Part shown: in pieces, positions 20,581-62,114 of the stretch
Layout: each line of letters opens with the position of its first letter
How positions within the stretch are numbered: the first letter of the stretch is position 1
NCBI GenBank assembly: GCA_965178125.1
Contig: OZ237775.1
Location: 124,001-188,000 of the forward strand
Direction: 5' to 3'
Length of the DNA stretch: 64,000 nt
From: Bilabrum cf. latius
Lineage: Eukaryota
Position numbers and translations under genes: made by a program
The notes under the pieces: model-generated
Database searches by the model: none
Told to the model about the DNA's origin: nothing
What the model saw: only the letters and a program-made list of their open reading frames with translations

Positions 20581-20583
20581 CCG

Positions 20584-20680: not shown

Positions 20681-20755
20681 GTAGCTAGATACAACACGCA
20701 AATAAGCACGGTGTCGACTCCTGAATTGCGATACACCATCCTGGATATCCCAGGA

Positions 20756-23409: not shown

Positions 23410-26400
23410 ATGAACGTGGTAGTACTCATTTTTGCATTCGTAGGTGCTGGCACGCTTGCTGCGCAGCCCGCTCCTTCGGAAGGAGATGGAATCTAGCTGT
23501 TTGTCTGTCTGCCTGGGTCAAGTGCACAGTCGTGGCATTTGGAAAGCGGACCGTGAGAATTATGAACAAGCACGGATATTCCTACGCTCTTCCAGCCTAC
23601 AACTTGGCCGCATGAACGGTACTGCCCGATGAAGACTGTGTCTTCGGTGGAACAGTAGCTGATTTGTTGATCGGGAATGTCTGCCAGGACAACGTGTTGT
23701 GCTTCAAGTTGCCGATCTATTTTGTTCTCGCAGGTATCCGAATTCTCGTTTTCTCTTGGCGGGCTCGACACCACAGCTGACCCTTGATATCACCAACTGG
23801 TCGAATGCAACCGGTGCTAACTTGCACCTGTTTACGCTTACCAACACCGCCTGGAACCAGCAGTGGAACTACAGCGCATCGACACAGAATATCGTGTCCA
23901 AGATGAACGGCCACTGCTTGGACATTTCTGGAGTTGTAGCTGCCGGGACTCCAGTGGTCTTGAACCCGTGCAACGGGAAGGATACACAGAAATGGAACTA
24001 CGACGCGTCCTCTGGCAAGGTTACAACCGCATCTAATTCCTCCATCTGCATGGACGGCGGGTCATCTTTCAACTGCAGCAATTTCCCGGACCGCCCGTAT
24101 TGCAACCCGGACTTGCCGACCGAGCAGCGGCTGGACGATCTGGTGCCCAGGGTCACCCCGCTGCAGGCCGCAGGGATGCTGCAGGGGTATCATTCAACTG
24201 GAGATGTTCTGCTAGGTGTGCCGGTTATGAAGTTCGCAGAGGCGCTTCACGGCCCGCTGTGTCTGTGCGGCGCGGCCTCTGGTCCCGATTCCACCGGGTG
24301 CCCCACCTCCTTCCCGCACGCACTCGTCACAGGGGCCACGTTCAACCGCACCCTGTGGAGGTCCATGGCGACTGCCATCTCGTACGAAGCCCGATCGCTG
24401 GGCAACCAGGGGAAGTGGGGCACTGGGCTGGCCTGGGCTCCCGATATCAACCTGTTCCGTGACCCGCGCTGGGGCAGGGGACAGGAGGTGCCCGGGGAGG
24501 ACCCAGTGCTCAACTCGGAGTATGCTTTTGAGTACGTCACCGGGCTGCAGGGGATTGATGACGAGGACTACATCCGGGTGGTGGCAACACCCAAGCACTT
24601 CTCCGCCTACGATCTCGAGAACTGGAACGGCACCCAGAGGTACGACTTCAACGCCATCGTGACATACGGCGAGCTGGTGGAGTATTTCTGGCCCGCGTTC
24701 CGGTCTGCATTCGAGCGCGGGCAGGCGCAGAGCACCATGTGCAGCTACAACGCAGTGACGGTGCGCAACCAGACCCACGCGACCACCGGCATCCCTTCGT
24801 GCGCGAACGGGTTCTTCAACAACGGCATCATCCGAGGGGAGTGGGGTTTCAATGGATTCATCACGTCCGAGTGAGTCTACCTGCAGTCGTGTACTCTCGC
24901 CGTTTGCTTTGGTGAATCTAATTGCAGTCATGTACTCTCGCCGTTTGCTTTGGTGAATCTTGCGCCACTGATCCAGCTGAAGCCCGGCACACCCTCTTGC
25001 ACTTTGCTCCTGTCTGCCCTTCCCTTACTGTCGCAGCTGCAGCGCCATCAGCAATATCTTGTACAATCACCACTACACGAATACGACAAGTGGGACTGTG
25101 CGAGCCGCCATGCAGCAGGGTGGCACTGATGTTGATTGCGGGAGCTTCTATCGCGATCACCTTGCGCCTGTAAGTAGAGTGCGCCCGTCCCGTTCGCGAC
25201 GGTGCGATCATGCTCCAGTGATACGCATTGAGGGCAGGGCTACCCAATCAATACACATACTATGATGCGTTCTAAAGCCTATTGCACGCGCACTCATTGT
25301 AGTTCTCTCTTGGTCCTCCGCAGGCTGTCGAAGACGGCAATGTGACCACCCCCGCGCTGCAGACAGCCATCCGCAATTTCCTCCGGCAGGTGATCCGACT
25401 GGGTGCGATGGATCCGCCCGAGAGAAACCCCTACCTGCAGCTGGGGCCAGAGGTAGTGGACACGCCCGCCCATCGAGAACTGGCCCTGGACGCGGCACGG
25501 CAGGGCATCATCCTGCTCCAGAACCAGGGTGGGGTGCTGCCACTGGACGCGTCCAAGCTGTCCTCTATTGCCATGATCGGCCCCCATGCAAACGCATCGC
25601 AGGACATGCTATCCAATTACCACGGACTGAACTTTTTGGTTAATTCTCACACCCCTCTGCTTGCTATGCAGGCCGCGTTGCCCCAAGCATCAATCCAGTA
25701 CGCGCAGGGCTGCGATGTCGCATGCAACTCTACAGGTGGTTTTGACCAGGCAGTATCAGCCGCAAAATCAGCGGATGCCATCGTCGTGTTCCTTGGAATA
25801 TGCGATGACCAGGAGAATGAAGGTCACGACAGGACGTCCATCGACCTGCCGGGTCACCAGCTGGAGCTGCTGCAGCAGGTGGCGCAGACGGCGGGGGCCA
25901 AGCCGCTTGTTGTGGTCTACATCCACGGCGGGGTGCTGGGGGATTCATGGGTCAAAGCCAATGTGCCCGCCATCGTGGACGCGCACTACCCCGGGGAGCT
26001 CGGAGGGGACGCCATCGCTGAGGTGCTGCTGGGGCAGACCAACCCGAGCGGGCGAGTGACCACCACCTGGTACGCGAGCGACATCACCAGCAAGCGATCC
26101 ATGTTCGACATGAGCATCAAGCCGCACGATGACGTGCCCGGGCTGACGTACATGTTCTACGGGCCCGAAGACGGGGCCATGTGGGAATTCGGGGACGGCC
26201 TGTCCTACACCACCTTCGACGTGCAATGGGCCTCCGGGGTTGGGGCTACACCTATGGCTGTGGCGGGGACCGATGTGGCCAGCGGTGTGTAGGACATGTC
26301 GTACACGGTAACTGTGACCAACACTGGCTCTGTGGCGGGGGCGTGGAGCGTGCTCGGCTTCGTGACCCCAACAGGGGGTGAGGGGCTGCGGGTGTCCGGT

Positions 26401-38993: not shown

Positions 38994-41129
38994 ATGTCAC
39001 GTAGTCGAGCAGGGAATGGCGGGTCCCTTGGGTGGCTTTCTCTTGCGATTCTTGCGGCGGTCTCCTTTGGAATCACACTGTTCGTTGCAACGCATAGCTT
39101 CAGTAGACCGAATGCATCCGGTCCAATCTTCACAAAACAAAATTCGGTGATATCTTACGTTGCTGGCAGTGCTGCTACGGACGCAGAGCTCGAAAAAGCG
39201 CACGAAGAAATCGAGAGGTTGAAACACTAGCTGGCCTCGGCCCGGCAAACTGCCGCTGAAGCCGCTGGCCTGCTCCGAGCCAGACAGAAGAAAGATAAGG
39301 CCGATCCGCAAGTTGAGCTTCCAGATATCCCAGCAGAGAGCAAGGTACCGGCGCTGCCTATGAAGCCTAGCAAAGTGGGATCCGAAGCACCAGCCGAGCG
39401 GAGCCAATCCATTGAGTCGCCCCAGGTGGCTTAGAGAGCCCAAGAGACCTAGGCTGCACCAACACAGGATAGCACGCAAATGCCTTTACCTGTTGCATCC
39501 AGCGCAGTGCCGCTCGCCTTGATGGATCCGCGGCTGCCTCCGGTGGGAGGGCCCCCCTAGCCAGGCATCTGCTGGAAGGGCTTCGATTTTGGTTTCATCA
39601 GGGAGTGGACGGGCCCGCAGCATACCAAGCACATGTGCAACACTCGGCCGCAGGGAGACGCACGCCTCACGTGCTACTCGGCAAGGCATGCTCACCTCTC
39701 GCAGCCCGCAGCTCCCCACGCCATGTGTACCTTAGACGGCGGCGGATGGCTCGACTTCACGAAGATGGCCCCGGCACAGTGCCCCGCCAGCAGACCCGGC
39801 TGGAAATGTGACGGGTAGCCCGTGTACCACCGCTTCACCAAAGGCTTCATCAGCAGCCGATGCGAGCCCACGCCAGAGAACAACCCCGTGCAGCACCTGT
39901 CCCAGGATCACCTCAGGGACATGTTCAAGGCCTTCCAGCCACTGGGTGCGACACAAGGCGAGGCGCCCCCGAGCGATGCATGGGGCCTGCCCTCTGGCCC
40001 CTTGGCTTTGTCTCCATATGGTACAGGGGACTAGAGCCCAACCGCTGCCTCTGGCGATGGCAATGGCAATGGCAGTGGCAATGGCAATGGCCCGCCGATC
40101 GTGCTCGCAGTCACCAGGGAGCGCGGGGAACACGCGAACCTGTTCCATGCCACGACGGATTTCATCAATGCGTTCATCGCACTGCATGGCATGGGTGTCA
40201 TGGACGGGGAGCAGGGCAGGATTGCGGAACAGCGAGAGGCAGTCACCGGCAAGGTGGGCGTGCTGCTCCTAGACGAGCAGGCGGAGGGCCCATTCGACGT
40301 GGTATGGGAGAGAGTGTTCGCACCTCGTTGGGGGGTCAGGAGGCCCTCAGTGTTCAAGCCGGCGGGGGAGGCGGGTGGCCTGCCGCAGTCCGGGGTGGGC
40401 CAGCACGAGAAAGTGCCGGAGGCGGCAAAGCCAATGCGCGGTCCTTAGTTGTCTGCCGATCGTGTCCTGTTTGTGGCACCGGGCTATGCCTCCGCGTTCT
40501 TTCACTAGAACAAGGGGAATGCTCTGTGCCGCGAGCCGGTGAGGATGTACAGGGCATACAGGTCCTTCTTCCTGGCCGGGTTGGGCGTGCAGGAGCCCAG
40601 GCCTGATCCTAGTGCGCCTTTGAAGGTGCTGTTCGTGTCCCGTAGGCCGTACAACAAGTTTGTGGAGCATTCGTCCGTGGGTCGGCAGATATCTAACGAG
40701 GACGAGGTGCTGGCCAAGCTGGGTCACGATGGTGGAAGGACGGTGTTCGGGACGAGCGGGGCGGTCGTGGAGAGAGTGGATTTCGTGCATTTTACGTACG
40801 AGCAGCAGGTGCAAAAGGTGGCTGAGACGGACGTGCTGGTGGGCATGCACGGTGCGGCTCTCACTCACTCTTTGCTGCTGCCTCCATGGGGCGGTGTGCT
40901 CGAGTTCTGGCCCAAGCAGAAGGACATGTGGCGATGCTTCGAGCACATGACCGAGCTGGCCTCTGGCAACTACGCAAGGTGGGCCAACTCAGACCCCCGC
41001 AAGTTCCGCAGTGACTACTAGGGTGACTACACGGAAGTAGATGTGGTAGGGATGGCGTTGGAGGCCTCAAGGCTGGCCGAAAGGGTCGTCGGATCCAGAC
41101 AGACCTTCGCAGAACTGGACGGCGACTGA
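38994..41129 (+). CDS. Type II membrane glycosyltransferase family 61 (EOGT/xylosyltransferase-like)
   Basis: N-terminal TM, stem, then RGEHANLFHATTDF, VLFVSRR, RQISNEDEV, QVQKVAETDVLVGMHGAALTHSLLLP. Nine TAGs read through; TGA 41127-41129. Confidence 0.85.
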
Positions 41130-41499: not shown

Positions 41500-44400
41500 T
41501 TACAGCCCTGCTTCGTACCTACGCCTCGCCTCCGCCACCGAGAACACGGTCGCCCCCGTGCCCTTGCCCACCTCGATCCCGGCCCGCAGCCCCTCGATCT
41601 GCACCTCGTACGAGCCCTCGCGCACCGCCAGCTCGCCATCCTCGTCTGCACTGGCCAACACAGAGGCGGGGATGGTCAGGTGCAGCACTTGCGACTTGCC
41701 AGGGGCCAGCACGACCGTGCGATCGAAGTCGAATAGCTCTTTGCGGGCACCGGACACCCGCAGCCCCTCCCCCCCTGTTGGGGTCACGAAACCAAGCACG
41801 CTCCACGCCCCCGCCACAGAGCCAGTGTTGGTCACAGTCACCGTGTACGACATGTCCTACACACCGCTGGCCACACCGGTCCCCGCCACAGCCATAGGTG
41901 TAGCCCCAACCCCGGAGGCCCATTGCACGTCGAAGGTGGTGTAGGACAGGCCGTCCCCGAATTCCCACATGGCCCCGTCTTCGGGCCCGTAGAACATGTA
42001 CGTCAGCCCGGGCACGTCATCGTGCGGCTTGATGCTCATGTCGAACATGGATCGCTTGCTGGTGATGTCGCTCGCGTACCAGGTGGTGGTCACTCGCCCG
42101 CTCGGGTTGGTCTGCCCCAGCAGCACCTCAGCGATGGCGTCCCCTCCGAGCTCCCCGGGGTAGTGCGCGTCCACGATAGCAGGCACATTGGCTTTGACCC
42201 ATGAATCCCCCAGCACCCCGCCGTGGATGTAGACCACCACCAGCGGCTTGGACCCCGCCGCCTGCGACACCTGCTGCAGTAGCTCCAGCTGGTGACCCGG
42301 CAGGTCGATGGACGTCCTGTCATGACCCTCTCTCTCCTGGCCCTGGTCCAGCCCGAGGAACACAATTACGGCATCAGCGGACTTTGCAGCTGATACTGCC
42401 TGGCTGAAACCGTCAGTACTACCGCACCCGACATCGCAGCCCTGCGCGTACTGGATCGATGCTTGGGGCAGCGCACCCTGCATAGCAAGCAGAGGGGTAT
42501 GCGAGTTCACGAGCACGTTGGTGCCGTGGTAGTTGGATAGCATGTCCTGGGATGCGTTTGCATGCGGGCCGATCATGGCAATAGAGGACAGCTTGGTCGC
42601 GTCCAGTGGCAGCACCCCGCCCTGGTTCTGGAGCAGGATGATGCCCTGCCGCGCCGCGTCAAGGGCCAGCTCTCGGTGGGCGGGCGTGTCCACGACCTCT
42701 GGCCCCAGCTGCCGGTAGGGGTTTCTCTCGGGCGGGTCCATCGCACCCAGTCGGATCACCTGCCGGAGGAAATTGCGGATGGCCGTCTGCAGCGCGGGAG
42801 TGGTCACATTGCCGTCTTCGACAGCCTGCGGAGGACGGCAAGGATAGTTCGAGATTAGCGGAAAATACATTATGGAGCGATTCTATGTATTCCAGTACTG
42901 CAGATGGGTGGTCAATATGCACTGTTATTGACAAACCAGCCTGACCTCACATTGACTAGGTTATCCAGGTAATATTTCCCGCAATCCACATCAGTGCCAC
43001 CCTCCTCGATGCCTGCCTTGACCGTGGCGCTGGGGGTGTCCGTGTAGTGGTGATTGTCAATGATGTTGCTGATGGCGCCGCAGCTGCGACAGTAAGGGAA
43101 GGGCAGACAGGAGCAAAGTGCAAGAAGGTGTGCCGGGCTTCAGCTGGATCAGTGGCACAAGATTCACCAAGGCAAACGGCGAAAGCACATAGCTGCAGGT
43201 AGACTCACTCGGACGTGATGAATCCGTTGAAGCCCCACTCTCCTCGGATGATGCCGTTGTTGAAGAACCCGTTCGCGCACGAAGGGATGCCGGTGGTCGC
43301 GTGGGTCTGGTTGCGCACCGTCACTGCGTTGTAGCTGCACATGGTGCTCTGCGCCTGCCCACGCTCGAATGCAGACCGGAACGCGGGCCAGAAATACTCC
43401 ACCAGTTCGCCGTATGTCACGATGGCGTTGAAGTCGTGTCTTGTACTGCCGTTCCAATTCTCGAGATCGTAGGCGGAGAAGTGCTTGGGTGTTGCCACCA
43501 CCCGGATGTAGTCCTCGTCATCAATCCCCTGCAGCCCGGTGACGTACTCAAAAGCATACTCCGAGTTGAGCACTGGGTCCTCCCCGGGCACCTCCTGTCC
43601 CCTGCCCCAGCGCGGGTCACGGAACAGGTTGATATCGGGAGCCCAGGCCAGCCCAGTGCCCCAAGGGCCCTGGTTGCCCAGCGATCGGGCTTCGTACGAG
43701 ATGGCAGTCGCCATGGACCTCCACAGGGTGCGGTTGAACGTGGCCCCTGTGACGAGTGCGTGCGGGAAGGAGGTGGGGCACCCGGTGGAATCGGGACCAG
43801 AGGCCGCGCCACAGCCGCACAGCGGGCCGTGAAGCGCCTCTGCAAACTTCATATCAGGCACGCCCAGCAGCGCAGCTCCGCTTGAGTGATACCCCTGCAG
43901 CATCCCTGCGGCCTGCTGCGGGGTGACCCTGGGCACGAGATCGTCCAGCCGCTGCTCGGTCGGCAAGTCCGGGTTGCAGTACGGGCGGTCCGGGAAATTG
44001 CTGCAGTTGAAGTTTGAGCCGCCATCCATGCAGATGGAGGAATTAGATGCGGTTGCAACCTTACCAGTGGACGCTTCATAGTTCCATTTCTGTGTATCCT
44101 TCCCGTTGCACGGGTTCAAGACGACTGGAGTCCCGGCAGCCACAACTCCAGAAATGTCCAAGCAGTGGCCGTTCATCTTGGACACGATATTCTGCGTCGA
44201 TGCGCTGTAGTTCCACTGCTGGTTCCAGGCGGTGTTGGTAAGAGTGTACAGGTGGACCTCTGCGCCGGTATCGTTAGACCACTCGTTGACGTCCAGTGTG
44301 AGTTGCGGATCGGTGCCTTCCAAGAGAAAACGAGAATTCGGGTACCTGCGGGCATGAAAAGGGGTCAGCACTAGACAGAGTCAATCTATTATTGTATTTC

Positions 44401-45262: not shown

Positions 45263-48200
45263 ATGGGCCAGCCCAATTCGAAGCCAACTGACGGTAAAGG
45301 GGATAAGAGCACCAGCACGACAGGAAGTGGGACAAGTCAAGTCGCCGCCCAGGCGCAACACCCGAGGCCGAACTCAACTACATTGAAATCTAATGCAAGT
45401 ATAGGCAGTGATGCTGGCACGGGGGAGCAGCCAGGAGACAGCCTGCAACTTATCAGCTTGCGTGAATCGCACCCTAGCGGCAGCACTAGGTCTCACAACG
45501 GACCAGCGCCTCGGAAGCATGATTCGAACGAGTCTCCGAATGGCGCAGCATAGCGTTCTCTACTCCCCGCACCGACAGTCTTGCCCTCTCGGGTCGTCCC
45601 GTTGGCATCTCTTCATCCAGCGAGCGGCCAGCGCCCCTCGAAGGCAATGGGCAGGGTTCCATGGAAGCGGGGCGCGCTGCTCGGCTCGGGCGCGTTTGGC
45701 AGGGTCTTTTACGCTCTGAACCAGGACGATGGACGGACCATGGCAGCCAAGCAGGTGCCTCTCTACCGCAGGAACACGGAGTCCAGGAGGAGAGCCAGGC
45801 GGCGTCCTACCATGGGCGGCGCCGCGCGCGGAGGTTCCGCACTGGAGGAGTCCTTGTTGGAGGGTCTGGACGAGAAGACGAGGGAGCTCGTGTGCGCCCT
45901 GCAGCAAGAGATCAAGCTGCTCATGGACCTGGACCACCCGAACATCGTCAAGTACCTCGGTGCTCAGAGGGATCCTGTGGGCGGGGGCAGCGGCAGGCTG
46001 GTGGAGCTCACTGAGGTGGTGGAGGAGGAGGAGGGGGAGGGGGAGGGCTCGCATGAAGGTGAGGCGGGAGTCGCTGGGTCCACCACAGGGTCCAGCGGGA
46101 CGGGCACCGGCACGGGCAGTAGCAGCAGCGGAAGTGGACAGGCCAGGGTTAGGGCCGGCACTGGATCGGGATTCAGGGAGGCTGATGTGACTGGGATCTC
46201 AGACCCGAGCACCGGCTCCACGAGCGGAACCATTGGTGGCGCCGCGCAGGGGTCAAGGTTGCGACGAACGGGTCCTCGGCGTCCGTAGGGTGCATCACAT
46301 GGTGGTACAGGTCACACACACGCCACCGGCGACCCGGACCAGGGCAGCTCGTCTCGCCCCCGTGAGTCGGGGCAGGGTCAGGGGCAGGGGCAGGGGCAGC
46401 CGGCATTCCTGGTGCCCCGGATCGATCTGGGAGTCTCCGGTGCTCAGAAGAGTCGCAGTGGGGGAACGTTCGGCCAAGGATCCTCCGAAACCACCGAGGG
46501 CGCCTGGCAGGACCGTGACCAGGACCCTGATCATGACCGATCCTCCTCGATCGCTTCGTCCAGACAGAGGCGCCTGGGCCTGAGAGAGGACGTGCTCAAG
46601 ACGCCCGACTCGGAGCCGTTATCCCACGTGGAGGGTTTCGCGAGGGCCAACCGCAGGGATGCAGAGGTGCTGAGGCACCTGCCCTCTTCCGGCTCCGAGT
46701 CCTCTCGCCCCAGCGGGCTGGCATTCGAGCCAGGGTCAGCCTCCGGGTCAGGGTCAGTGCGGAGGTTCAATTCCGCCGAGACGCCCGAGTCGAGGCGGGA
46801 TTCTAGCCGCGGCAGTGACGTCATAGTGCAACGCAAAGCGCGGGGACAGGGGCGAGGTCGTCCCCGTGATGGGGTGCTTGCGTTGGAACGGGGCCGGCAT
46901 GCCACGGGGAGGCACAAGAGCTCGAGGGGTCTCGGCCGGAAATCCATGGAGCTCGCTGCATCAGGCAGCTTCTCAGATAGCTCCGGCGAGGAAGCCGAGG
47001 AGGAGCGAAGGCATCAGCGTGGTCGTAAGGGGAACAAGGGTGGGGGGAGGCAGGGAGGTTACGTCAGTCACGAGGTGACGAGCGGATCCCGGCTGCTGCG
47101 GGTGCAGTACTCGTCCAAGGAGAGCAGCACGAGCAGCAGGCGGGGGCAAGGGAGCAGTATGGCTGCGATTAGCGCCCGAGGCTAGAAAGAGAATGGTGAT
47201 GGTGGTGGTCAAAGTGGCGGAGGCAATGGGGGAAATGCGAGCCCTGGTAACCACAGGGACACAGGTGACGGGTGGAGCGAGCTAGACATGGTGCCTCCCA
47301 GCCTGCCAGTGGGGCCGCAATCGGGGGAGAGGAACAGCGGGGGCGACGAAGCAGTACATGGGATGCATGGCATTGAATCGCGGTCGAGCCCTGGGTGGGC
47401 GCCAGCTCCCATCGCCGCCACTGCTGCTGCGCCTGGGTCTGGTCCTAGTCGCCATGGCTTGCGAGCAGGCAGCAACAGCCAGGACTCTGGCGATTTGCAG
47501 CGGGTGCACCGCGGCGGTGGCACGCGGGACAGCAAAACGACTCAGGGCGCGAATGACGAGTCCGATGGCGGTCGCGGGGATGCATCCGGCAGCAAAGGTT
47601 CCCTCCGTGGTGTGAGCGAGAGCAAGCATAACCTATCGCAGCTCGATGCCTCGTCACTCGGCAGCGAGATGCAGGGCAGTGCGTTGCTTCCTAGTCGGTC
47701 CTCATCCAGCTCCGAACCGCGTGCCCTCCGACGCGTCAGGACACGCCACAGACTGATGCCTGACGGCAAGCCCGAGGACTGGGAGCAAGGCGCTGTGTGC
47801 AACCTGACCATTCTGATGCAATACGCCTCGGGGGGGTCACTGGCTCAGCAGCTGCAAGACTACAGCCCCTTGCAGGAGAAGATCGCTGCAAAGAGGACAG
47901 GGGACATTCTGGCAGGGCTTATGTACCTGCACTCCAGGAGCATCATCCACCGAGACGTGAAGCCCGCGAACGTGCTGCTGGACGCCGCGGATGGGCGAGC
48001 AATGCTGGCGGATTTCGGGGCCTCTGTGCGGGTCAAGTCGATCGCTGCGATGGAGAAGCGAATCCTGAGGAGAGCTTCGTCGTCAGGATTCGATCCAGAG
48101 CTGGGAAGCGACAAGGCGGATGACAGGGAGGGGGCGGGGCATCGGTAGGGGTATGGATCTAGCGCAGCAGCCGCTAGGCCTGCTTCTGCTGTGGGTGACA

Positions 48201-51200
48201 CAGGCAGGGGTGGTGCTAGTGGCCGCCCCAAGCCTATACAGCTCGCGAGACTCTAGACAACCGGCGGCACTGAACTCAATGATGGCGCCAGACCTGGCAA
48301 CACAGAGAGCGGACACCTGACGCCATTCACAGATGCAGATGGAGGCGCCGGCTCCACAAAATCTGGGAGCGAAACTGTTGGAGCAGCAACGGCCGATGCG
48401 GCCACAGCCGCTGCTTTATGCGCACTAGGCAATCCATAGGGGGGCACCTTGGTGCAGGACCTCATCGATCTGGAGGGTGGACAGGGCAACCACAAGCACG
48501 GTCGTGTTCGTTTGCACCGCCACGGACCCAAGCACGGCCATGGTGGCAGCAAGGCGGGTGCCAGCACAGACCTCTAGGACTAGGGCGTGCAGGTGCAGCA
48601 ACTAGGCAGCGATTCGGATTCTGATTCCGGGTCCGGATCAGACAGCGCGCGCTCCCTGAAGGGGACTCCCCTGTACATGGCGCCGGAGGTTGTGAGACAG
48701 GCCAACTATGACGGGAAGGTGGACATATTCTCGCTCGGGTGCACCGTGGTGGCGATGATCCAAGGAAACCCGCCGCTTGCGCACAAGTTTGACAACCCGA
48801 ACGCCCTCATGTTCTACCTCGCCTCGGGTGGATCCATCCCAAAGCCAACGAATGGCTCGCCTGAGTACCGGCACTTCGTCCGCATGTGTCTGCAGCGCGA
48901 GCCCGACATGCGACCGACCGCAGAGCACCTCTTGCGACACCCATGGATCTTGCGCATGCCAATGGAGGACCCAGCCGCAGACCCGGAGATCGTCTAGTGG
49001 GAATTCGAACCAGAGGAGCAGGACGAGGAGGGCCCGAGTATAGAGGCAGGATCGGACTCGTCCTTTGGAACCACGCCGATGCATGGCACCGGCACTGGCA
49101 CTGGTACTGGCACTGGCGGACATCGCACACCTCGTGCCGACACGCCGCTGTTTAGAGAGGATGGGCGTCAGAGTCCCGGCGCAGCTGGTGGTGGTGCAGC
49201 AGCAGATGGTCCCGGTTCAGCGCCCCCCCACTCTCGGACAGCAACCGGCAGTGACTGGCAGGGTCACTCGTCACGCGAAGTGCCGGTGGAGCCACAAGCA
49301 TTAGACAAGCGAAAAGGAGAGAAGGGCATGGTTCTTGAATTGGGAAATGCTGCCAGGCGGGGTCCCGGGCCGGCCCTGACACGCACCGGGAGAGTGGATT
49401 TGGCCGCAGCGGGAAGTTCCGCAGCAGCGGGTCGTGGCCGAGTAGGTGTAGAAATGGATTCAAATTCCGACTCTTCGCGAGAGGGTGACAGTGACGGGCA
49501 GGGGGAAACTCGTCGAAGCCCACGACGGGCTAGGGAGGGCGGCAGGGAAGGCGGCACGGGCAGGGGATCTGCCCTGGGCGGTGCCTTGGATGAGAAAGAC
49601 AAAGCTGAGGCCAGGCGCTTGTTCTACGGGCCCGGTCCCGGGGTGCCTCTGGATTCAGGAAGCAGATCCAGAGGGATGACTGGCAGCAGCAGCCGCGACA
49701 CTGCGGATCTAGCGAGGGTGGGTGGGAGGGCAACGGGGGTGTCACCTTACGGGGGTCGGGCGGGCAAATCCGGAGGGACGGGCGACAGCGCCAGCGCCGT
49801 GCTGCGTGCCATGGAACACAGCGAGCATGGGCGCGGGCTGCCTCAATCCACCTCTGTAAGCTCTGCGGATGGGTACAGAGACAGTGAGGCGGACGATGCT
49901 GGTGGCAGGGAGCTGGATCTGGATGGGGATGTGGAGGGTACAGGCACAGGGGGGGGCGAGGCAAGCGCGATGGGAATGCGGCTCGCCAGCTCAAGAGAGG
50001 CATCCGGCTCCGAATCCGATTCGGACCCGGAGCCTATACCCGGCTCTGAGAAGCATGTGGATGGGCCCACAGCGGGACCATGGTCAAGGTCTGCCAGGCG
50101 CCGTGGGTCTGCAAGTGACGCAGCCGGTCCCAGCGACGGGACAAGCGGTGCAGCGAGACTAAGAGGCACGGGAGGTTCTGTGCAGCCCAGTCACGCGATG
50201 CAGTTTGTGAGAACAGTAGATTCTTCGAGCGCTAGTCCTGGCACTGATATCAGTGGGCCTGTGGACGACTCTCGGTGGGGAGGGATCGGGGGCGGGCTGG
50301 GTGGTCACAGCTCCAGCTCCTTCGAGCCATATGTGTCTGAGGGATCGACAGGCAGGCCCGTCGTGTCGGATGGCTCCAGGGGATTTCGAGCTGTGACAGG
50401 AAGCTCTGAATCTCATGCGCATGGGCATAGGCATTAGCATGGGCATGAGCATGGGCATGGGCAGGGTGATGTCACGGAGGCTGGCAGCACGCCGCGGCGC
50501 AGCCGATTGCCGGCAGCTGGAGTTGTAGACGGGGTGCATGGCATGCGCGTACACTCAAATTCAGGTGTGGGGACAGGCAGCCTGCATAGAAGTCACGGTG
50601 GCATGCGCTTGCATCTGCCCGGTGGTGGTGGTGGTGGTAGTGGTGGTGGTAGCGGTAACACCGGCATTCGTGTCGATGCTGGTCAAGACACCACATCGGC
50701 ACAGAATCACGACCATGTGTACAGAGGGGTATCGCCCAGTGGACAAGCACCGCACGGTGGCTGGCCATTGCCGGCAGGGGCTCAGCCTGACGACACGACA
50801 AGGAGGAGGAGGGGCCTCGAGTCGGCCGGATCCAGCGGGTCACGATCCGGGGCCACGCCCGGCCTTCACCCTAGGACGCCCGGGTCCCAGCTAGCGGCAA
50901 ACAGCTTTGGCGCGCAAGGCTCACATGGTGGAAGAGGGGGGGGAGGGGAAGGGGGAGGAGGAGGAGGCAGCCGCAGGGCAGGCAGGGAGAGGGGCAGCGG
51001 GTCCATGGACTCGGCACACTCCCAAATCCCCGGCCTGCTGGGGCAGGGTCAGTTCCGCCGGGACCGCGTGGACCCCACTGCTCCGATCGATGCCTCACAC
51101 GGGTCCTCCTCCGAGTCCTCTCGAGGCATCGGGATCGAGTCGATGGCGACAAGCCCCTGGATCGGCGGAGGAAGCTCCCAGAGAACAACGCCGGGCAGCG

Positions 51201-54034
51201 GCCGCAGCCAGGGAACAACAGACCCCCGGCATGCTGCAGTCGGGCCAGGGAATAGCAGCAACACCAGCGGCACCAGGCACTCCCCTCGGTCCTCCACACG
51301 GACCCGGACACCCCTTGGCATGGCAGCCAGGACACTGGTGCACGACCCCGCGGCCGCGACCGGGACGGGATACGATTAGACAGCACTGTCAGGGGCTGGG
51401 GGGCACAATCACTCGTCACACGCTCGGCAAGGCGGATCGGACGGCAGCAGTCGCAGCAGAGGGGGCGACGCGCTGGACGCACTCGTCACATAGCAACCGG
51501 GCCGATTCGGCTCGCACAGCCGCGGGCCGAGCCTCGACAGCGTACGGTCGGCTACCGGTGGTGGTGTGACGAGTGTGGGCAGCCGGGGCCGCGGGGGCCT
51601 GCCCTCCGTGCTCCTGGACCCTATGCAGCGCCCTTCTTCCGTGATGAGTCTGCACAGTCGGGGCGGGCACAGCGGGAGCGGGAGCGGGTCTGGGTCTGGG
51701 TCTGGGTCTGGGTCTGGCGCCGCGCTGACGCAGCCCTCTGGTTCCGCTTCGGGCAGCAGCATGACCGGTGATTCCTAGTCCAGGAGGAGGAGGAGGGGGC
51801 GAGTGGGCGCCGGCGGCGGTGGGGATGGGGATGGGGATGGCATAGGGGATGGCGGCGGCTCATCTTCCTCCTCGGGGACGGGGCGCCTGCTGCTCGCAGG
51901 GAACAGTTAGGGGGATGGCAGGGGAGGGGGGAGGAGGAAGAGGACGACGAGCCGGGCACACAGGCAAGAGGCCGGACTGCGGTACATGGGCGAGGACAGC
52001 AGCAGCAGCAGGAACAGGAGCAGGAACAGGAACAGGGTCGAAGCTATGGGCAGCGGTGTTGAGGAAACTAGCCGCAGCGGGGTCCAGCTGCTGCATGGAG
52101 AACATGTACCGAGTCACGGGAGGAGGCGCGGGATGGAGGCAGGCACGGCGAGGGATGCAAGAGTGCCAGGGATGGAGGCAGGCACTGCGAGGGATGCAAG
52201 GGGGCCAGGGGAAGAGGCTGTCCCAGCTGCGGATCCGCTGGCCCTCGGTAGCATGCTGCATGCAGTGGAGAGACGAAGGGGGGGCGATGTGCCACCGAGC
52301 TCGCTGCTCTCTCCTTCGGGACGAAACAGTGGAAGTGGCATGCCCGGTAAGATGCCCTCGGATAATGTGACGAGTGATGGTGTGACGAGTGCGAGCGGGC
52401 TGGGCACGAGGATGAGACCCAGCCAGGCCACGCGGCGAGGGGTCGGCTCCCCGACGTCTCGGATCGGATCACCCACCTCCATGTATCCTGCAGGTGCAGG
52501 TGCAGGTGCAGGTGCAGGTGCAGGTGCAGGTGCAGGTGCAGGGTACGGTAGTGCCAGGCGGTACGATTCTTCCGAGAGTTCTCTGTCGTATCCCCGCTCG
52601 TACCGCAGGGGCATCGGGCCGGCGGATGGGAGCGGGAGCCAGAGCCAGGCCCAGCGGCAGGTGACCTCCACCACGATGCGGAGCATTGGCGGCGCAACAG
52701 TCGACATGATGGTGGAGCCTGTATCTGGGAGTGTGATGAGTGAAGCGGGTGCGCCCCATGGTTCACTGCAAGGAGTGGGCGGGCTTGGCGCTCACAGTGT
52801 GGCGAGTGGAAGCAGGGGGCAGCGGGTACCGACGGACGACGGTTGGACGAGCGCGAGGATGGATGGCCTCGGGTATGACGTGCATGAGAGGGATGGGGAG
52901 GGGGAGGGGGAGGACGACGATGGAGAGCGGTCTGTGGTGGATGATCTTGGTGTGACGAGTGCGAGAGAGGGTCACGAGATCGAGGTATCGGGGGGCACTG
53001 CCTCAACGGGCGGGGTACCCAGCACCAGCGGGAGCGGGGTCGGGGTCGGGATGGGGCGAAGGAGTGCTAGAATGGGGCGGCGCAGGGTGGTGCAAGGGCT
53101 CGATAGGGGGTCACGGCTATCCCCGAATCGCAGTGTAGAGAGCAGTACTGGGTCTTTTCCTGGAGAGCTTGCCACTGGCACTGGCACTGGCACTGGCACT
53201 GGGTCAAGTTCTGGGATGAGGCTTGCGAGTGCACTGCATGGCGGTGCACCGCATGGAGGAGACTCAGCCGGCCCCCGCTCACAGGTGGGAGCTGACGTGC
53301 CCCGACTCGGAGCCGGAATGACCCGCGGGGTGTCCATGGGCAGTCTCCTCCCCTAGTCCCCGTCCCGCTTGTCCCCCACGCGCCATAGGGGGACTGCAGC
53401 CGGGTCTACCGGTGTGGGTGCAGGGCATGCAGGTGCAGGGCATGCAGGTGCAGGGCATTCAAGTGCAGGTGGTCCAGCTCCATCCATCCGCAGAGGTGCA
53501 AGCGAGGCCGATGCCAGCCAGGCAGCCCCGGTCATGTTCGGCAGGAGGAGGGGCCAGTCTCGTTCTGGCCCGCTGGATCTGACGGGCCCTGCATTGCATG
53601 ATGGTGCAAGTGGAAATCAGGGGAGGCTCACATCCATGGACTCAGGGCTAGGGGCAGAGGCAGGGGCAAGGATAGGGGCAGGGGCAGGGACATGGGCAGC
53701 GGGTGTAGGTGGAGGAAGGCGGTCAGCTGAGCATCAGCAGCCCACCGTGCGGCCAGGGGTGCACAAGAGCCTGAGCCAGAGCGTGGGATCCAGGCTGGGG
53801 GCGCAGGTGAGGCAGGCAGTGCGTGTGACGAGTGCGAGCGGCGGCCCGACGGAGGTGTCTGCCTAGCAGCAGGGCGCGAGGCAGCGGCAGCGGGGCAGCA
53901 GCGATGCTGTGCCTAGGGCGAGGGGCGGGGGTAGCGGCGCCGCGCTTCGGTCGGTTCCGCTGCTTGCGACCCCTTCTGGCGGGATGGATCCGCGGTCGTG
54001 GTCAGGGCGGCGGCACGGGGATGGGTACAGGTGA
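45263..54034 (+). CDS. STE11/MEKK-type MAP kinase kinase kinase, about 2920 aa, kinase domain interrupted by large low-complexity inserts
   Basis: MGQPNS (possible myristoylation); WKRGALLGSGAFGRV, MAAKQV, EIKLLMDLDHPNIVKYLG, ILMQYASGGSL, IIHRDVKPANVLL, LADFGAS, LKGTPLYMAPEV, DIFSLGCTV, RPTAEHLLRHPWI. Single frame, 16 TAGs, no TAA/TGA until TGA 54032-54034. Confidence 0.85.
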
Positions 54035-54296
54035 TGCACTGCCGACTAGGTTGTCTCATCTGCAGGTGTGTAGTTGATGATGTTCGTGGCCCATGCAAGT
54101 GGCCGCAAGGTTGGGAATACACATGCGCGCGAGACCATTCCGAAGATTCTAATCAAGTATAAACCAATTTTCATTGCGATAAATAGACTGGTCGTCATAG
54201 CCCGGTGTTCAAGCGGCGGTGTTCCTGGGACTACCGGTAGCGTGTACTTCTGATTACGGTGGGCGTAAATGCCCACTTTGCTCCTGTAAACTCAAC

Positions 54297-56387
54297 ATGG
54301 CAAGCGCTGGACCTCCAGAGAAGAAGGCTCGCATTGAAGTATCATCTTCCTCATCTGCTGCGAGCGCTGCTGGAGGCGCAGCCACTGGAGGAGCTTCCGT
54401 GGCTACCTCTTGGGTTGAGGTGTCTGAGGCCCACGGCTTCCCTATCCAGAACATCCCATTCGGGGTCTACAAGCCGAAGGAAGAGAAGTCAGATGACAAG
54501 GCGGTATGCGCTAGCCGAATCGGTGATTTCGTGAGTATCGTTTTTTCGCGTGTACTATCGCGTTGTGACATGGCCGCGTGGACGAATCATGCCCAAATTC
54601 CTGTGCATTCCGGTTTCAAACAACTGCTTCAAAGCATTCTGTATTTAATGGTTATTTTTATTACAAGTGCGGCTCTATTGAGCTCCTTTGTCACGGACAA
54701 TCAATGCTGATGTGCCTGCGATCTTCCCCACTGTTCGGGGAACGGACGACTCGCAAATTGGTGACCGATTCAATCCTCCACAAGCGTACGCCACACAATT
54801 TATATCGTAGGCCATTAACCTGCGAGCCCTAGTGGAAGCTGGACTTCTCTCTGGCGATTGGGCCAAGTCACTGACCGAGGAGACGCTCAACTCGTTCATG
54901 GGGCAGGGCCGGGCATCGTGGAGGGACTGCCGAGGGCAGCTGCAGGCCCTGCTGGCAAAGGGCGGAGACGGGGAGGCCAAGGTGCGCGGCGCTGGTGCCC
55001 TGGTTCCGCTGTCGGAGGTGCGCATGGTGCTGCCGGCCCGCATCGGCGACTACACGGACTTCTACTCCTCCCGGGAGCACGCCACAAACGTGAGACTAAG
55101 AAGAAAAACGGAGCGCCTCATGTTTTGATGATGATGCGTGCATATAAAAGGGTCTATCAAAGCACAGCTTGCGAGGGTACCTCACCGATGGGAGGCTGGG
55201 AGGCTGCCGGCACACAAAACCACAAAACCGCCGCGTTACGCCTCGACCCCCTGCCCCCTTCTTTGTTCTGTCCCTTTCTCCCCCCCCCCAACCCTGCCCC
55301 CCTGTATGCTTGCTTTCCATTCCTATGCCTATCATCGCATCTCATCGCAGGTGGGCACCATGTTCCGCGGCAAGGAGAACGCCCTGCAGCCCAACTGGCT
55401 CCACCTCCCCGTGGGCTACCACGGCCGGTCTTCCTCTGTCGTGCTGTCGGGCACGCCCATCCGGCGCCCCATGGGACAGCTGCAGAAGGACGCGACGGAC
55501 CCCAAGCAAGGCTCCGTCTTCGGCCCTTGCCGCCTCATGGACTTCGAGATGGAGGTGGCCGCGTTCGTTGGCCCAGGGAACAAGCTCGGCGAGTCGATCA
55601 AGATCGAGGAGGCGGAGGAGCACATCTTCGGGCTGGTGCTCATGAACGACTGGAGCGCGAGGGACATTTAGAAGTGGGAGTACGTCCCCCTGGGGCCGTT
55701 CACCGCCAAGAACGTCATGACCTCCATCTCGCCCTGGATCGTGACTCTGGATGCCCTTGAGCCGTTCAAGTGCAAGACATCGGCGGGGGAGCAGACGGAC
55801 CCCAAGCCCCTGCCCTACCTCCAGGACCCCGACTACAGGTCCTACGACATCGACCTAACAGTGAGCAGAGCTGAGCTTGGGTGTCTAGTGTGCGGTTGCA
55901 CTGCATTGCTGCATATGCCCTATACTGCTCGCAACTCAGAACTCAAGCGGGGACTCATATGTGTGCCCCCTCCCTATGTTCCCCCGCTCCCACTTGTTCC
56001 CTCACTTGTTCCCTAAATCAGGTTGCCATCAAGAACAAGAGCCTTCCAGCAGGCCACGTCGTGTCCAGGACCAACTTCAAGTACCTCTACTGGAATGTGA
56101 AGCAGCAGCTCGTGCACCACACTGTGACTGGGTGCAACATGCAGCCGGGCGACCTCCTGGGCTCGGGAACCATCAGCGGCCCTGACCCGGGCATGTTCGG
56201 AAGCATGCTGGAGCTCTGTTGGAAGGGCACCAAGCCCATGGACATGCCCGACGGGTCCACCCGAAAGTTCCTCGCAGACGGCGACAGCGTGGTGATGACG
56301 GGGGCATGCACGGGCGAGGGCTACTCGATCGGGTTCGGGGCCGTGGAGGGTGAGGTGACGCCTGCGGCTGGTGCCCCTGCCTCATGA
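54297..56387 (+). CDS. FAH: Fumarylacetoacetase
   Basis: Exons 54297-54530, 54811-55089, 55351-55860, 56022-56387. [63 protein letters not shown] (TAG 55669-55671), [32 protein letters not shown]. Confidence 0.97.
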
Positions 56388-56527
56388 GCGGAAAGCGACA
56401 AGAAGGGGGTGCCGGGCCGAGGGCAGCTTAATTGAGCAAGGTGTGGCAGTTGGGGGTAGTGTGGATTTGAAAGCCGGGTAGCACAGTTGTAGCAAGGGGG
56501 CAAAGATAGAATTTCCGTATTTGTTAG

Positions 56528-57394
56528 TTAGTCGCAACACTGGGCCACCAACTTTCCCCCGCTGTAGAAAGGGTCCAGCAAAGACAGTCCCATCGAAGAG
56601 TTCTCCGACTTGAACAGCCCAATGGAGACCTAGGAAAAGTGCACATGGAATCCGAAGCAAATCTGCCCACCCGTGTGCCCAAAAGTTGCCGTGCCCTGCC
56701 CCCAGGCGCCCGCCAGGCCGACCGCGGCTTGTCCAATCGTAAAGATCCCTATGGCCACCTGCCCCACGGCCACGATTCCCCACGTGATCTGCCCTACGCT
56801 AAAGAAGCAAATGTTGTCCCTCGCGTCTGGAATCGTCGCGCACACCGCCTTGTACCCAATTTTGTCGGTAAACAAAAGCTAAAACGTGAATATAGTTGCG
56901 GTAATCAGGGCTCCGCACCAAATTACCATCCCGAATCCCCAGCAGATGTAGGTTGATGTGTCCCAGTCGCTGGGGGCAGCACACCGCCAGGTAGAACAGT
57001 CCAGGAACGATCGCTTATCCTTCGGCGTGTCTCCCGTGCCAGCGGCGGCGCTGCCCGATGCCGCCTGCCCATCTATCTCAAGCTTAGCAGGATTGCTCAA
57101 CTCTGCAACGCAGTGGTCGACCAGCAGCCAGCAGTTCTCGTCCCAGGCAGCCGGGTCTTGCACTTTCTGGAACCGGTTGTAAAATGCCACTAAACCGCGG
57201 TCCATATTGACTGCTTTTTGCAGCTCTTTGGACTATCTTATCGTACCAAGCGTGTCTGTTAGATACTGCTTAATCTGACTGTCCGGACATGCCATCATTC
57301 TGTCCACGATATCATCCCAGACCTGCTGTGGTGTCTGCGGCGGTGTGCTGGCGGGCTAATCAGCCTGTTGTAGCAGCTGGCTGTCGCGAATCAT
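56528..57394 (-). CDS. Hypothetical membrane protein with periodic xxGQxxxG repeats
   Basis: ATG 57394 (MIRDSQLLQQ); 4 TAGs join ORFs 56879-57205 and 56630-56875. TM ICWGFGMVIWCGALITATIF, then SVGQITWG/AVGQVAIG/TIGQAAVG/AWGQ/TGGQICFG; ends at TAA 56528-56530. Confidence 0.7.
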
Positions 57395-57585
57395 TCATCC
57401 AAGTAAAGAAGCACAATTTAATTGAAGATTGTTAGATACTACCTCTATAACCAAGTGGATATGGCCCCGCTTGCAGCTGCAGGCCAACTTGTCGAATTAA
57501 TGTGACGTGCACTTTTGGCAAAATTGCAGAGGCACAAAAGCACCCGGGACCAATCGCACCCCGCTTCGACCTTGCGTACTGAAAC
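57395..57585. promoter_or_regulatory. Probable short bidirectional promoter region
   Basis: 191-bp AT-richer gap between divergent ATGs at 57394 (-) and 57586 (+). Inferred from geometry only. Confidence 0.4.
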
Positions 57586-58818
57586 ATGCAGGCATCGCTC
57601 GAAAGGTTTAGTGATAGCTTATCAAGGGCGGTTCGACGGGCTAAAGAGCCGCAATATTTGCCCTACACGATCGTGGCGGGAACAGCTACTGCAGTTGTAG
57701 TTGGCGTTGCAGCATACAGATGGATTACTGCCCCTGCTGAGGGCAAACTGTCTGATGATTAGTAGGTATTTGAGGATGGCGTGACTGTCAAGACATCAGC
57801 TGGCTAGTCTGTCGTGACCCGAGTCCCACGGACGACGGCTGGTTTCACAGAGGCTGGTGCAATCCTAGCGTCATCGTACGCTAATAATCCAATGATGAAG
57901 GCATCTGTTGCCAAGGTGAGATCACACATCACAAAATCGTGCGTTATTTCGCTGTATTTCCGCTGTATTGCTTGATGTTGTATGCAATGCGGAGAATTGG
58001 ATTGGATCCTAATCTTGATTAGTCAGTGGTATCAACCCGGTGATAAATAGTCTTGTGTCACTTGTATAGTACCGCAGGATGTTAGCGACGACAAGCGAGA
58101 GGCTGCGGCCCGCTGGCTGTTCGAGCGTCTTGCTCGCTCCGCGGGCTACTCGTCCACGGGCGCCCTCGTGCTCCGCAGTGCTCCCTCAAAGTAGGCCACG
58201 GCGGGCGCGGTGGCCGTGGTGTTTCCCCCCGGCGTGTCCTCCGCCAGCGCGCGGCTGCAGTCGGAGATGTTCTGGCAGGGCACCTGGGGCTACCTCACGG
58301 TGTTTGGCTCGCTGCAGGGGCTCGGCCGCCTGCTCAGCCTCGGGGAGGTGACGGAGTTGGCGAGGGAGAGGCTGACGAGTGCGGTGGCCAAGGAGTCGGG
58401 GTACGTGTACGTCATGTCGCTTGGCGGCACAGACGCGGGCAGCAGGGCGGGTCTGCTCTCGGCCGTGGGCCAGATGGCTGACAGGAAAGGGGTCGTCTGC
58501 TTCTCGGAGACCTACGGGGAGGACTAGGACTCGGAGCTGAAATCCGCTGGGTTCGAGGTGGTGGACGAGCGGCCGCAGCTGTTCGGACTCACGGTCCGCT
58601 ACTGGATGCGAGCGGCGAGGGATGCCTCTGGCAGGTCGGTGCAGGACATCAACAGGTACGCGCTGAGCAATGTGGACACGGGCGGGTATGCCCCGGACGA
58701 GCTTGAGGCTGGTTTCAGGGCACACGAAGAGGAAGAGGCGCGGAAGGCCAGGGAACAGGAGGACGCGAAGAAGGCCAAGGCGGAGGAGGCCAAGGACGAC
58801 GAGGCGGGAGACATGTGA
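57586..58818 (+). CDS. GNAT-fold N-acetyltransferase-like protein with N-terminal membrane anchor
   Basis: Exons 57586-57915 and 58078-58818 (intron GTGAGA..CGCAG). AGAILASSYANNPMM, GAVAVVFPPG, YVYVMSLG, ADRKGVVCFSET..GFEVV; 5 TAGs; ends TGA. Confidence 0.65.
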
Positions 58819-60178: not shown

Positions 60179-60440
60179 TGCGGGTGGGCGGATGGGTGGA
60201 TGTGTGGGGGGCCGTGCTTGCTGGTACGATAGAGTGTCCTCTATTTTGTCTTAGTATGCCGCGCTGTGAGTGTACACATGAGTGCCAACGATGATCTATG
60301 GGTGTGGATGAAACACCACGGTCTGGGCAGTGCTGCAGCTGCCGACAGCCCAGGCCCGGGGCTGCTCAGCGAGCTTGTTGCGGTTTTGCTCGCACGGGCA
60401 ACGCACGGAGCTTTCTGTGCAGTCTTGGCCAAGGCAGGCC

Positions 60441-62114
60441 ATGGGATGGCATGTCTTAGGCATGATTGCTTTAGTAATGAGCAGTCCAATAAATTCCCAG
60501 CGTTTGGAAAGGAAATTGGTCGCCGGCACAGCATCGCTGCGAAGGCTTGGAAAATGCCCAGCTGATTCAGAACAAGGATTTTACTTCCAGCAGCAGTTTG
60601 AGGCAGCAAATGCAGCCTGTACTGCATCATTTGACAACTGCATGCGCAATTCGACTGCTGGAATGTGTTCTGGCATGTGCGATCGGGGTATCAGTGAGTG
60701 ACCGCCAGCGTCCACGTTGGTGTCGCGCTTTCCTGTGCATACTTGTGGGTGTCCCCTTTTCAACTGATTTTTTATCGCAGGTGCATTTGCGCACGATTGT
60801 GTCGTGGCGAACGGCGTTTTCTGCCATGCAAGACTGCATGGGACATTTCCTGGTACGTACAGCAGTCGAGCGCTCGTAGGTTCGAGCAGCGTAGGCCAGC
60901 TGGTAGCAAATGCCAATAGATTTATCCGTTAGGTTGCTGAGATATTTATGCCAAGTGCTATTTTGGCCGATAATGGCATGGAGCCGCGTACAGATCGAAT
61001 TGACCAAGCAACCCGGCCGGGGTCGACCGTGTCGGACTCGATCGCATCTGCCGCATCCCAGCAACTTGGGGGAAAGGACAACCAGTCAACGCGAAGAACC
61101 TAGCACAATACCAGAGAGCTCGCGGCTAGGACATTTTCGATGACAACGGGCACTTGCCTGCCGGATACGTGCCACAAGCGCGACATCACGGGGCCATTCG
61201 AAATCGCAGTCGCCAGGAAGTACTGCCAAGCCCACGGAATTCCGGCAATCAAATGCAAGAATGCCGCGATGTCCCTGCAGTGCGATTTTGGCCTGCGGCC
61301 GTCCGTCATGTGGACTGTGGTCGGATGCGTGCTCGGCGCCATGGCTCTCGGCCTCGTGGCCCTCTGCATTTGCTGCGGTGCCAACGGGGCATGCCCCGGG
61401 GGGGGACGGTACGGCCGCAGGGGATTTGCGACCAAAGGGTCTCTGCTGGTGGAGCTGGAGCTGCTCCGTTAGAGACGAAGGAACAGCGATGGTCCGTTGC
61501 TGATGGGCCTCGTGGACAGCGACGGCGAGTTTATTGAGGATGACGGCGAGGGGGGCGGGGGCGAGCATGGCGACAGTGGGTGCGAGCTGGACGCATTCGA
61601 TGGCGGGTCTGGTCCCCGGGGGGGCCAGGGGCGGGGCCGGGCCCAGCGGGGGATGTTCAGCTAGTTCGAGTTGGGCGGTGGTGATGAATAGGGGGGGGAT
61701 GGGCACCAGGCGGGGGGTGAGGGGCTCGAGGGCCCGGGATCGGGGCGCAGTGTGACGAGTGCGAGGGTGACAATGGGGTCCAGGGAACTGTCGCCCACAG
61801 ACGTGCTCGTGCAGCAGTCTGGCGGGCGGGTGCGATCCCGGGGCTCGTCGCACGATCGTAGGAACGTCCGTGAACGCCGCGAGCTTGCCGAGGAGCTGGC
61901 ACACGCAGGGGCTGGAGTAGACGCTGTGAGCGCGCCGGGGGCGATGACCACTCGATTTGGGGGGAGTGTCCAGGGGATGGACATTGGGTCTGTCTCCAAG
62001 GCGGGGGCGATGCTGGGGAGCGAGGCACCGAGGACGCAGCAGCTGCTCGCCTCTCCCCGGCCGCTGTCGGAGCAGCGAGATTCCAGGGAGCGATAGAGTC
62101 TTCTAGAGACCTGA
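60441..62114 (+). CDS. Type I membrane protein: signal peptide, Cys-rich ectodomain, TM, low-complexity tail
   Basis: Exon 1 60441-60693 (MGWHVLGMIALVMS), intron 60694-60780 (GTGAGT..ACTGAT..CGCAG); TM VMWTVVGCVLGAMALGLVALCICC; 6 TAGs; TGA 62112-62114. Confidence 0.65.

Follow-up and report, generated by a model that had tools for sequence, protein, structure and literature searches.

In-frame TAG codons in a GC-rich protist contig and a probable nuclear code reading UAG as glutamine

The fumarylacetoacetase gene and its in-frame TAG

The DNA analyzed here is a stretch of 64,000 nucleotides from contig OZ237775.1 (positions 124,001 to 188,000, assembly GCA_965178125.1), hereafter the 64-kb window. 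It has 61% GC, is intron-poor and consists largely of closely spaced, long eukaryotic genes, the majority on the plus strand. Pfam families identify among them an RNI-type leucine-rich repeat (LRR) protein, a kinesin-8, a thioredoxin/transmembrane (TM) protein, two SLC1 (SDF) transporters, two glycosidases combining GH3 and ricin-B domains, two SRCR membrane proteins, a GT61 (EOGT-like) protein, a kinase of 2,900 amino acids and a fumarylacetoacetase (FAH). We report on the TAG codons that stand within the reading frames of these genes, beginning with that of FAH, and on the evidence that UAG is probably a glutamine codon in this genome.

The FAH gene (54297..56387, plus strand) is composed of four exons (54297-54530, 54811-55089, 55351-55860 and 56022-56384), which were delimited by splice joints in contigs and by translation and are separated by three GT..AG introns of phase 0 (280, 261 and 161 nt). 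Its 462 codons include one TAG, and its stop is TGA 56385-56387. The joint of exons 2 and 3 restores a 13-residue stretch matching solved FAH sequences. The in-frame TAG, read as glutamine (Gln, Q) on the basis of FAH alignments and spliced contigs, is located in exon 3 (55669..55671, plus strand); the segment 55642-55704 runs from GAC TGG AGC through GAC ATT TAG AAG TGG to GGG CCG TTC, and its translation gives NDWSARDI, the TAG and then 10 residues.

When this exon, with its TAG masked as X, was compared with solved FAH structures (E = 1.5e-71), the homology passed position 55669 without frameshift, and the X faced the first Q of a conserved 15-residue FAH stretch in all three printed alignments. 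A HMMER query against 1.84 billion cluster representatives gave 4,502 hits, and in the best 150 of these, which were used for the TAG column, the residue was Q in 150/150. The query carried Q at that column, so that a slight bias in ranking is possible, but an invariant column cannot be created in this way. The glutamine of this column is presumably part of the FAH active site. Both points of the original prediction concerning this gene, namely that the TAG occupies a highly conserved Q position and that homology continues in frame beyond it, are thus borne out.

Ten public runs, designated by coded ids, were found to contain the stretch, and four of them (X4, X5, X6 and X7) were compared over positions 44001-64000. 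Contigs of X5, X6 and X7, which come from two studies, display five GT..AG joints (54530>54811, 55089>55351, 55860>56022, 57913>58076 and 60693>60781). None of the five occurs in X4, a deep DNA run, which is colinear with 53429-64000, with 0 differences. Since the spliced exon piece 55351-55860 presents 0 other letters in X5, X6 and X7, TAG 55669 is present in spliced molecules. The exon pieces with TAG at 58192, 58525, 60930, 61101 and 61470 on spliced contigs likewise present 0 other letters. They belong to two unnamed genes of the plus strand, one represented by its last exon (58076..58818, preceded by intron 57914-58075) with TAG 58192 and 58525, the other by an exon (60781..62114, preceded by intron 60694-60780) with TAG 60930, 61101, 61470, 61662, 61689 and 62094, the first three of which are carried by the spliced contigs. 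Judging from their splice joints, the contigs of X5, X6 and X7 would be transcript-derived. The retention of TAG in mRNA, which the original prediction had proposed as a check, is thus indicated at six TAG on spliced contigs of three runs with 0 differences, and CAG, which it had named as the alternative letter at these sites, was seen in the contigs of none of the four runs.

The TAG-bearing spliced contigs of three runs argue against both assembly error and editing. More generally, the view that no code change occurred, the TAGs being assembly errors, pseudogene lesions, mRNA positions edited to CAG or parts of unseen introns, is almost inconceivable. Nothing was found in favour of this view. 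Partial editing is possible in principle, as contigs drop rare variants and the comparison is blind to it. However, the TAGs recur without difference in contigs of four further runs, spliced ones included, TAA and TGA are absent from the TAG-bearing frames, FAH homology crosses the TAG without frameshift, one TAG is conserved between paralogs that are 94% identical, and a metagenomic relative (locus L001) has its own TAGs at other glutamine sites.

Stop triplets in and out of frame

The supported coding sequence consists of 17 segments of 13 genes, defined by homology or by spliced contigs, and totals 15,002 codons. TAG occurs 69 times in frame and 88 and 83 times in the other two frames; the corresponding counts are 0 against 27 and 49 for TAA, and 0 against 345 and 273 for TGA. 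TAG is therefore about equally common in and out of frame, whereas TAA and TGA are wholly kept out of frame, far beyond what chance allows. UAG is a sense codon, kept in frame in all genes of the window. All 15 gene models defined here hold at least one TAG, as the original prediction had asserted for every gene model, so that in any annotation of this genome under the standard code almost all genes would be cut short. Its count of about 95 in-frame TAGs is plausible, the sum over gene models and four unsupported open reading frames (ORFs) being about 92, but the exact figure was not reproduced; 19 long ORFs, in which some untranslated region and intron is included, contain 84 in 17,016 codons.

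TAG and TAA also differ in their effect on the length of the ORFs. With TAG as sense, the longest stop-to-stop ORF grows from 1,017 amino acids under the standard code to 2,929, and the residues in ORFs of at least 300 amino acids rise from 14,197 to 29,320; with TAA as sense, these values reach only 1,027 and 15,249. Taking TGA as sense yields 46,175 residues in such ORFs, a gain that is no evidence for reassignment, since TGA greatly outnumbers the other two triplets and the gain is alike in all frames.

The base following an in-frame TAG is G in 25 cases, C in 19, T in 13 and A in 12, compared with G 191, C 143, A 69 and T 44 after CAG. G and then C come first after both codons, with the order of A and T reversed, so that no readthrough context is evident. 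Programmed readthrough and selenocysteine or pyrrolysine recoding, which would be infrequent, confined to particular genes and tied to a local signal, do not fit these data, given TAG in 15/15 genes and a following base resembling that after CAG; an Rfam scan of the window returned no family or element.

The 15 gene models end at TGA in 14 cases and at TAA in one, and never at TAG. This bears on the idea that UAG is ambiguous, being both a sense codon and a context-dependent terminator as in Condylostoma, karyorelicts, Blastocrithidia and Amoebophrya sp. ex K. veneficum. Such codes do exist, as described in PMC12005148 and PMC4967479, and the gene ends examined number 15 only. However, with 0/15 models terminating at TAG, with in-frame TAG distributed from 0.03 to 0.98 of gene length without depletion toward gene ends, and with the real stop TGA never in frame and no trace of the further stop reassignments found in known codes of this kind, ambiguity of UAG is very unlikely here.

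TAA behaves differently from TAG. If it encoded glutamine, the CAA/CAG ratio (0.266) would lead one to expect 18.4 in-frame TAA, compared with 0 observed (P about 1e-8), and the expectation is still 7.8 (P 4e-4) when the calculation uses TTA/TTG (0.114), the lowest A/G ratio of the data set. Wherever a TAA is in frame with an adjoining coding ORF, it lies upstream of the start methionine, within an intron or past the homologous C-terminus, and in the 64-kb window no coding frame runs on through a TAA. TAA is not a sense codon. The one gene that ends with it is GH3 copy 2, whose TAA (41500..41502, minus strand) stands two codons before the point matching the TGA of copy 1 (26653-26655); the C-termini read RRRYEAGL-TAA and RRRYEAGLGE-TGA, respectively, and the similarity of the copies stops there. 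UAA thus probably still terminates, a role suggested by this one gene.

These data also address the possibility that UAG and UAA both encode glutamine (UAR=Gln, NCBI table 6) and that TAA is merely rare through high GC. UAR=Gln is the commonest nuclear variant according to PMC11687900, and TAA is indeed the rarest stop triplet in the window (177 and 194 occurrences on the two strands). We nevertheless consider this code highly improbable: TAA is present off frame in the supported codons from which it is missing in frame, its absence departs from expectation at P values of 1e-8 to 4e-4, GH3 copy 2 terminates at TAA where copy 1 has TGA, and no coding frame continues through the triplet. Because UAA is not reassigned, the code is of the rarer UAG-only type and not of the common UAR=Gln type.

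Several neighbouring genes illustrate the same pattern. The protein kinase gene (45263..54034, plus strand), of about 2,923 codons, contains 16 in-frame TAG, 0 TAA and 0 TGA and ends with TGA. The GT61 (EOGT-like) glycosyltransferase gene (38994..41129, plus strand) has nine in-frame TAG, and the two genes for SRCR-domain membrane proteins (26877-31166 and 31399-36885, plus strand) have nine and 11; all three end with TGA. An ORF at 36926-38149 encodes 407 amino acids with a signal-like N-terminus, contains one TAG and matches no Pfam family. The LRR protein, of more than 1,768 amino acids, continues beyond the window start; at 2324-5210 of its gene, an 84-nt unit is repeated 34.4 times in tandem (85% matches) and encodes 28-residue RNI-type repeats. 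Another tandem repeat, of 54 nt (7244-7609, 6.8 copies, 97% matches), lies within overlapping ORFs on both strands (7162-8595, plus; 7174-9084, minus).

The kinase gene shows two further particularities. Over its 5' part (45054-46600), contigs under other organism codes differ much from the window, e.g., by 26 differences in 681 nt in X6, while the FAH region is identical, which suggests strain or allele variation. In addition, the segments 46002-46668 and 52672-53338 exhibit a contig word depth of 1,600-5,900 in the DNA run, compared with about 55-120 elsewhere, together with numerous loose ends and long-range joints. These depth jumps have the appearance of low-complexity repeats in the coding sequence of the kinase gene with further occurrences throughout the genome.

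Glutamine at the TAG sites and a metagenomic relative

Besides FAH, paralogs and repeats of the window itself indicate the amino acid, and the three remaining grounds of the original prediction were all recovered. In SLC1 copy 2 (Pfam SDF), the TAG at 22646..22648 (minus strand) stands opposite CAG 18745-18747 of copy 1 in an otherwise identical 14-residue block (SQTIT_TLVGVFEQ). The two SLC1 genes (18079-20580, plus; 20756-23218, minus) are arranged tail to tail, are 52% identical and possess long low-complexity C-terminal extensions. In exon 1 of GH3/ricin-B copy 1, the TAG at 23494..23496 (plus strand) stands opposite CAG 44507-44509 (minus strand) of copy 2, in the contexts GDGI_LFVCL and GNIVQLFECL, and a second TAG is kept in both copies (26290..26292, plus, in copy 1; 41857-41859, minus, in copy 2), whose proteins are 93.75% identical. 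These multi-exon genes form an inverted duplication (23400-26800, plus; 41400-44600, minus) with 89-94% nucleotide identity, which flanks the SRCR genes, the ORF at 36926 and GT61.

Repeats give a similar picture, with eight TAG in the Q slots of GQ repeats. Six of them, interleaved with CAG, are in the tail of the kinesin-8 (12497..12544, plus strand), one is in the motif GKGQG_GQ of the thioredoxin/TM protein (16082..16084, plus strand), and one is in GGQG_GGY of a minus-strand ORF (8500..8502). The TAG of the motif HFS_VSIG (56630, minus strand), which the original prediction had placed in the Q slot of another repeat, was found as well.

An ortholog came from metagenomes, which were scanned with the window's kinesin motor and gave 80 loci. 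Locus L001, a metagenome contig of 3,683 bp with 59% GC, encodes a kinesin-8 motor that is 92% identical, the next best locus being at 64%. Its kinesin frame extends over 990 codons to the contig end and includes seven TAG, 0 TAA and 0 TGA; the window motor has no TAG. The window codons opposite the seven TAG are CAG in four cases, and CGG, AAA and CAC in the others; at least four of seven opposite Q has a binomial P of 9e-5, Q making up 4.1% of residues. In kinesin-8 homologs, Q is also the most frequent residue at two of the L001 TAG sites, namely the one that faces K in the window (64/107) and RRT_EST (72/120). As a control, 26 of the other 29 among the first 30 loci had no in-frame stop in the matched segment, and the three exceptions showed mixed stops in over-long matches, looking like introns.

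Because L001 has its own TAG at different glutamine sites, the reassignment is fixed and older than the split between the window and L001, and the shared code makes it a trait of a clade and not of one strain. TAG reaches 4.6 per 1,000 codons, i.e., 10.9% of glutamine codons, and the TAG/CAG ratio of 0.154 is half the 0.307 of the synonymous pair TTG/CTG. TAG is hence at about half the level expected of a freely used T-versus-C first-position synonym of CAG. Given these levels and a code common to the relative, the UAG change is established and not incipient. The original prediction spoke of a genome-wide reassignment; in-frame TAG in 15/15 genes of the window and in L001 agrees with this, the scope of the whole genome being an extrapolation.

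All informative comparisons, namely the FAH column, two paralog and four ortholog TAG/CAG sites and the GQ repeats, give TAG as glutamine, a conclusion that the alignments support and that agrees with the amino acid originally predicted. UAG could in principle be sense and yet encode Glu, Lys, Leu, Tyr, Ser or Trp, each being one substitution away from TAG. Codes with UAG as Leu, Ser or Glu are known (PMC11687900), and in weak alignments E, K, R, H or N is found opposite some TAG sites. A non-glutamine reading is most improbable, however, in view of the FAH column, of six TAG/CAG pairs in closely similar contexts and of the alternation of TAG with CAG in GQ repeats; moreover, K, R, H and E, which face some of the TAG, are residues with which Q is commonly exchanged.

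Several observations weigh against UAG=Gln as set out here. Most TAG sites are in variable or low-complexity regions and are uninformative as to the residue. None of the TAG sites checked in the SRCR pair (32% identity) faces Q, the partners being A, S, T, R, K, G and gaps. Diverged LRR repeats have TAG where we read the repeat consensus as E, N or G. The GT61 TAG columns face G/P, H/D and N/K in the sole two homologs that the search for this protein returned, at 37-38% identity, and three of the seven L001 TAG face R, K or H. Alignments of GT61, the C-terminal part of GH3 and SLC1 copy 2 with solved structures showed either no aligned residue or a variable one opposite TAG. The sites facing residues other than Q are variable positions, and they still provide no positive evidence for glutamine. 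On other aspects, the terminator role of TAA rests on one gene of 15, the library type of X5, X6 and X7 is not on record, none of the runs containing the stretch is listed as RNA and X5 was classed as 'probably DNA' by an automatic guess, and the sample is small, with one 64-kb window and one 3.7-kb contig.

The lineage was approached through the kinesin-8. The window's own proteins are absent from a collection of 5.8 billion proteins, in which identity to the kinesin-8 reaches 64% at most, and 61% (Cafeteria roenbergensis) among named hits. A maximum likelihood tree of the motor was built from 32 sequences out of the 120 listed hits, i.e., all 20 entries with a readable organism name, 11 unnamed entries and the window, the unnamed ones being the nameless among the 12 top-ranked hits, of which the twelfth is Cafeteria. 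The window and Cafeteria come out as sisters (94/89) within a group containing all named stramenopiles (90/85), apart from alveolates, metazoans and others. The lineage thus leans weakly toward stramenopiles, one gene with moderate support not amounting to a placement. FAH is too conserved to place it, its named hits including a chrysophyte (68% identity) and vertebrates (64-67%), and the metagenome scan with GT61 returned no relative.

The probable code, its mechanism and the known nuclear codes

Taken together, the data make it very probable that this is a nuclear code with UAG=Gln, UGA as the main stop and UAA not sense and probably a stop, which as a table is NCBI table 15. The window would then be nuclear DNA of a GC-rich, intron-poor protist whose cytoplasmic translation reads UAG as glutamine. 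Since UAG is read and UAA is not, the anticodon of the decoding tRNA should be CUA, and a tRNA-Gln with this anticodon would pair with UAG but not with UAA. It would arise most simply from a duplicated tRNA-Gln(CUG), which is one base away, and the glutaminyl-tRNA synthetase, normally reading the anticodon, would have to accept it; eRF1 would have lost recognition of UAG while keeping that of UGA and UAA. We transfer this mechanism for tRNA, synthetase and eRF1 by analogy from Iotanema spirale, whose eRF1 carries T32G in its GTS motif, a change to which Panek et al. (2017, PMC5304391) draw attention. A search for tRNA genes found 0 in the 64-kb window and 0 in L001, and neither the synthetase nor eRF1 is encoded in the window.

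It is a serious but tentative possibility that this is an independent and unreported origin of a UAG-only glutamine code, in a lineage that comprises two or more species, is GC-rich and intron-poor, leans toward bicosoecid-like stramenopiles and, in contrast to all UAG-only lineages described, terminates almost only at UGA. In full-text searches, no nuclear code change was found for stramenopiles, and the literature covered, which left subscription-only papers and supplements outside the search, yielded no GC-rich or stramenopile nuclear UAG=Gln code; as the runs date from 2024-2025, a description may already exist or be about to appear. If the origin is independent, capture of UAG would be possible under GC pressure, where UAG is presumably a little-used stop, and would not be confined to AT-rich genomes terminating at UAA. 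A GC-rich, UGA-terminating case with an assembly and public transcripts would be a tractable system to study how eRF1 distinguishes UAG from UAA, and whether what permits the capture of UAG is that it had been little used as a stop, rather than AT pressure.

Nuclear codes that split UAG from UAA are few and, as given in PMC5304391 and PMC11687900, comprise Iotanema, Protocruzia, two phyllopharyngeans, one rhizarian (UAG=Leu) and Scotinosphaera (UAG=Ser). UAG-only=Gln has been reported among these for Iotanema spirale (PMC5304391) and for Protocruzia tuzeti and two lineages of phyllopharyngean ciliates (PMC11687900). More distant is UAR=Gln, described in PMC11687900 for many ciliates, Ulvophyceae, hexamitin diplomonads, Streblomastix and Amoeboaphelidium. 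It likewise converts a stop to glutamine through a one-base change in a tRNA-Gln anticodon, but reassigns UAA too, whereas in the window the in-frame TAA predicted under such a code, about 18, are all missing. Amoebophrya sp. ex Karlodinium veneficum is also a protist with in-frame UAG, probably glutamine, and with UGA as a stop (PMC12005148, PMC6394959); however, it has all three stops in frame, in a contextual code, and is AT-rich, whereas the window is GC-rich with TAG alone in frame, and on these grounds it was rejected as the source of the window. Outside eukaryotes, the crAss-like bacteriophages of code 15 also read TAG as glutamine (PMC9523058), but within the biology of bacterial release factors 1 and 2, whereas the window represents a eukaryotic nucleus with spliceosomal introns.

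The closest parallels are the UAG-only codes themselves. Iotanema spirale (Fornicata) shares the table, with UAG=Gln only, and the same predicted mechanism (Panek et al., 2017, PMC5304391). However, its primary terminator is UAA, whereas 14 of 15 genes end with UGA in the window, and it is an anaerobic metamonad known from its transcriptome, in contrast to a 61% GC genome with FAH, SRCR, GH3 and a kinesin-8 that groups with stramenopiles. Protocruzia tuzeti and the two phyllopharyngean lineages, which represent several independent origins, similarly combine UAG=Gln with UAA as a stop (McGowan et al., 2024, PMC11687900). According to the same source, UAA makes up 86.9-98.3% of stops in these UAG-only ciliates, whose genomes have 27-54% GC, compared with UGA stops and 61% GC here; in addition, nothing in the window, on a contig of at least 64 kb, is ciliate-like. 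The code described here therefore differs from the known UAG-only cases in base composition, in stop usage and in lineage.

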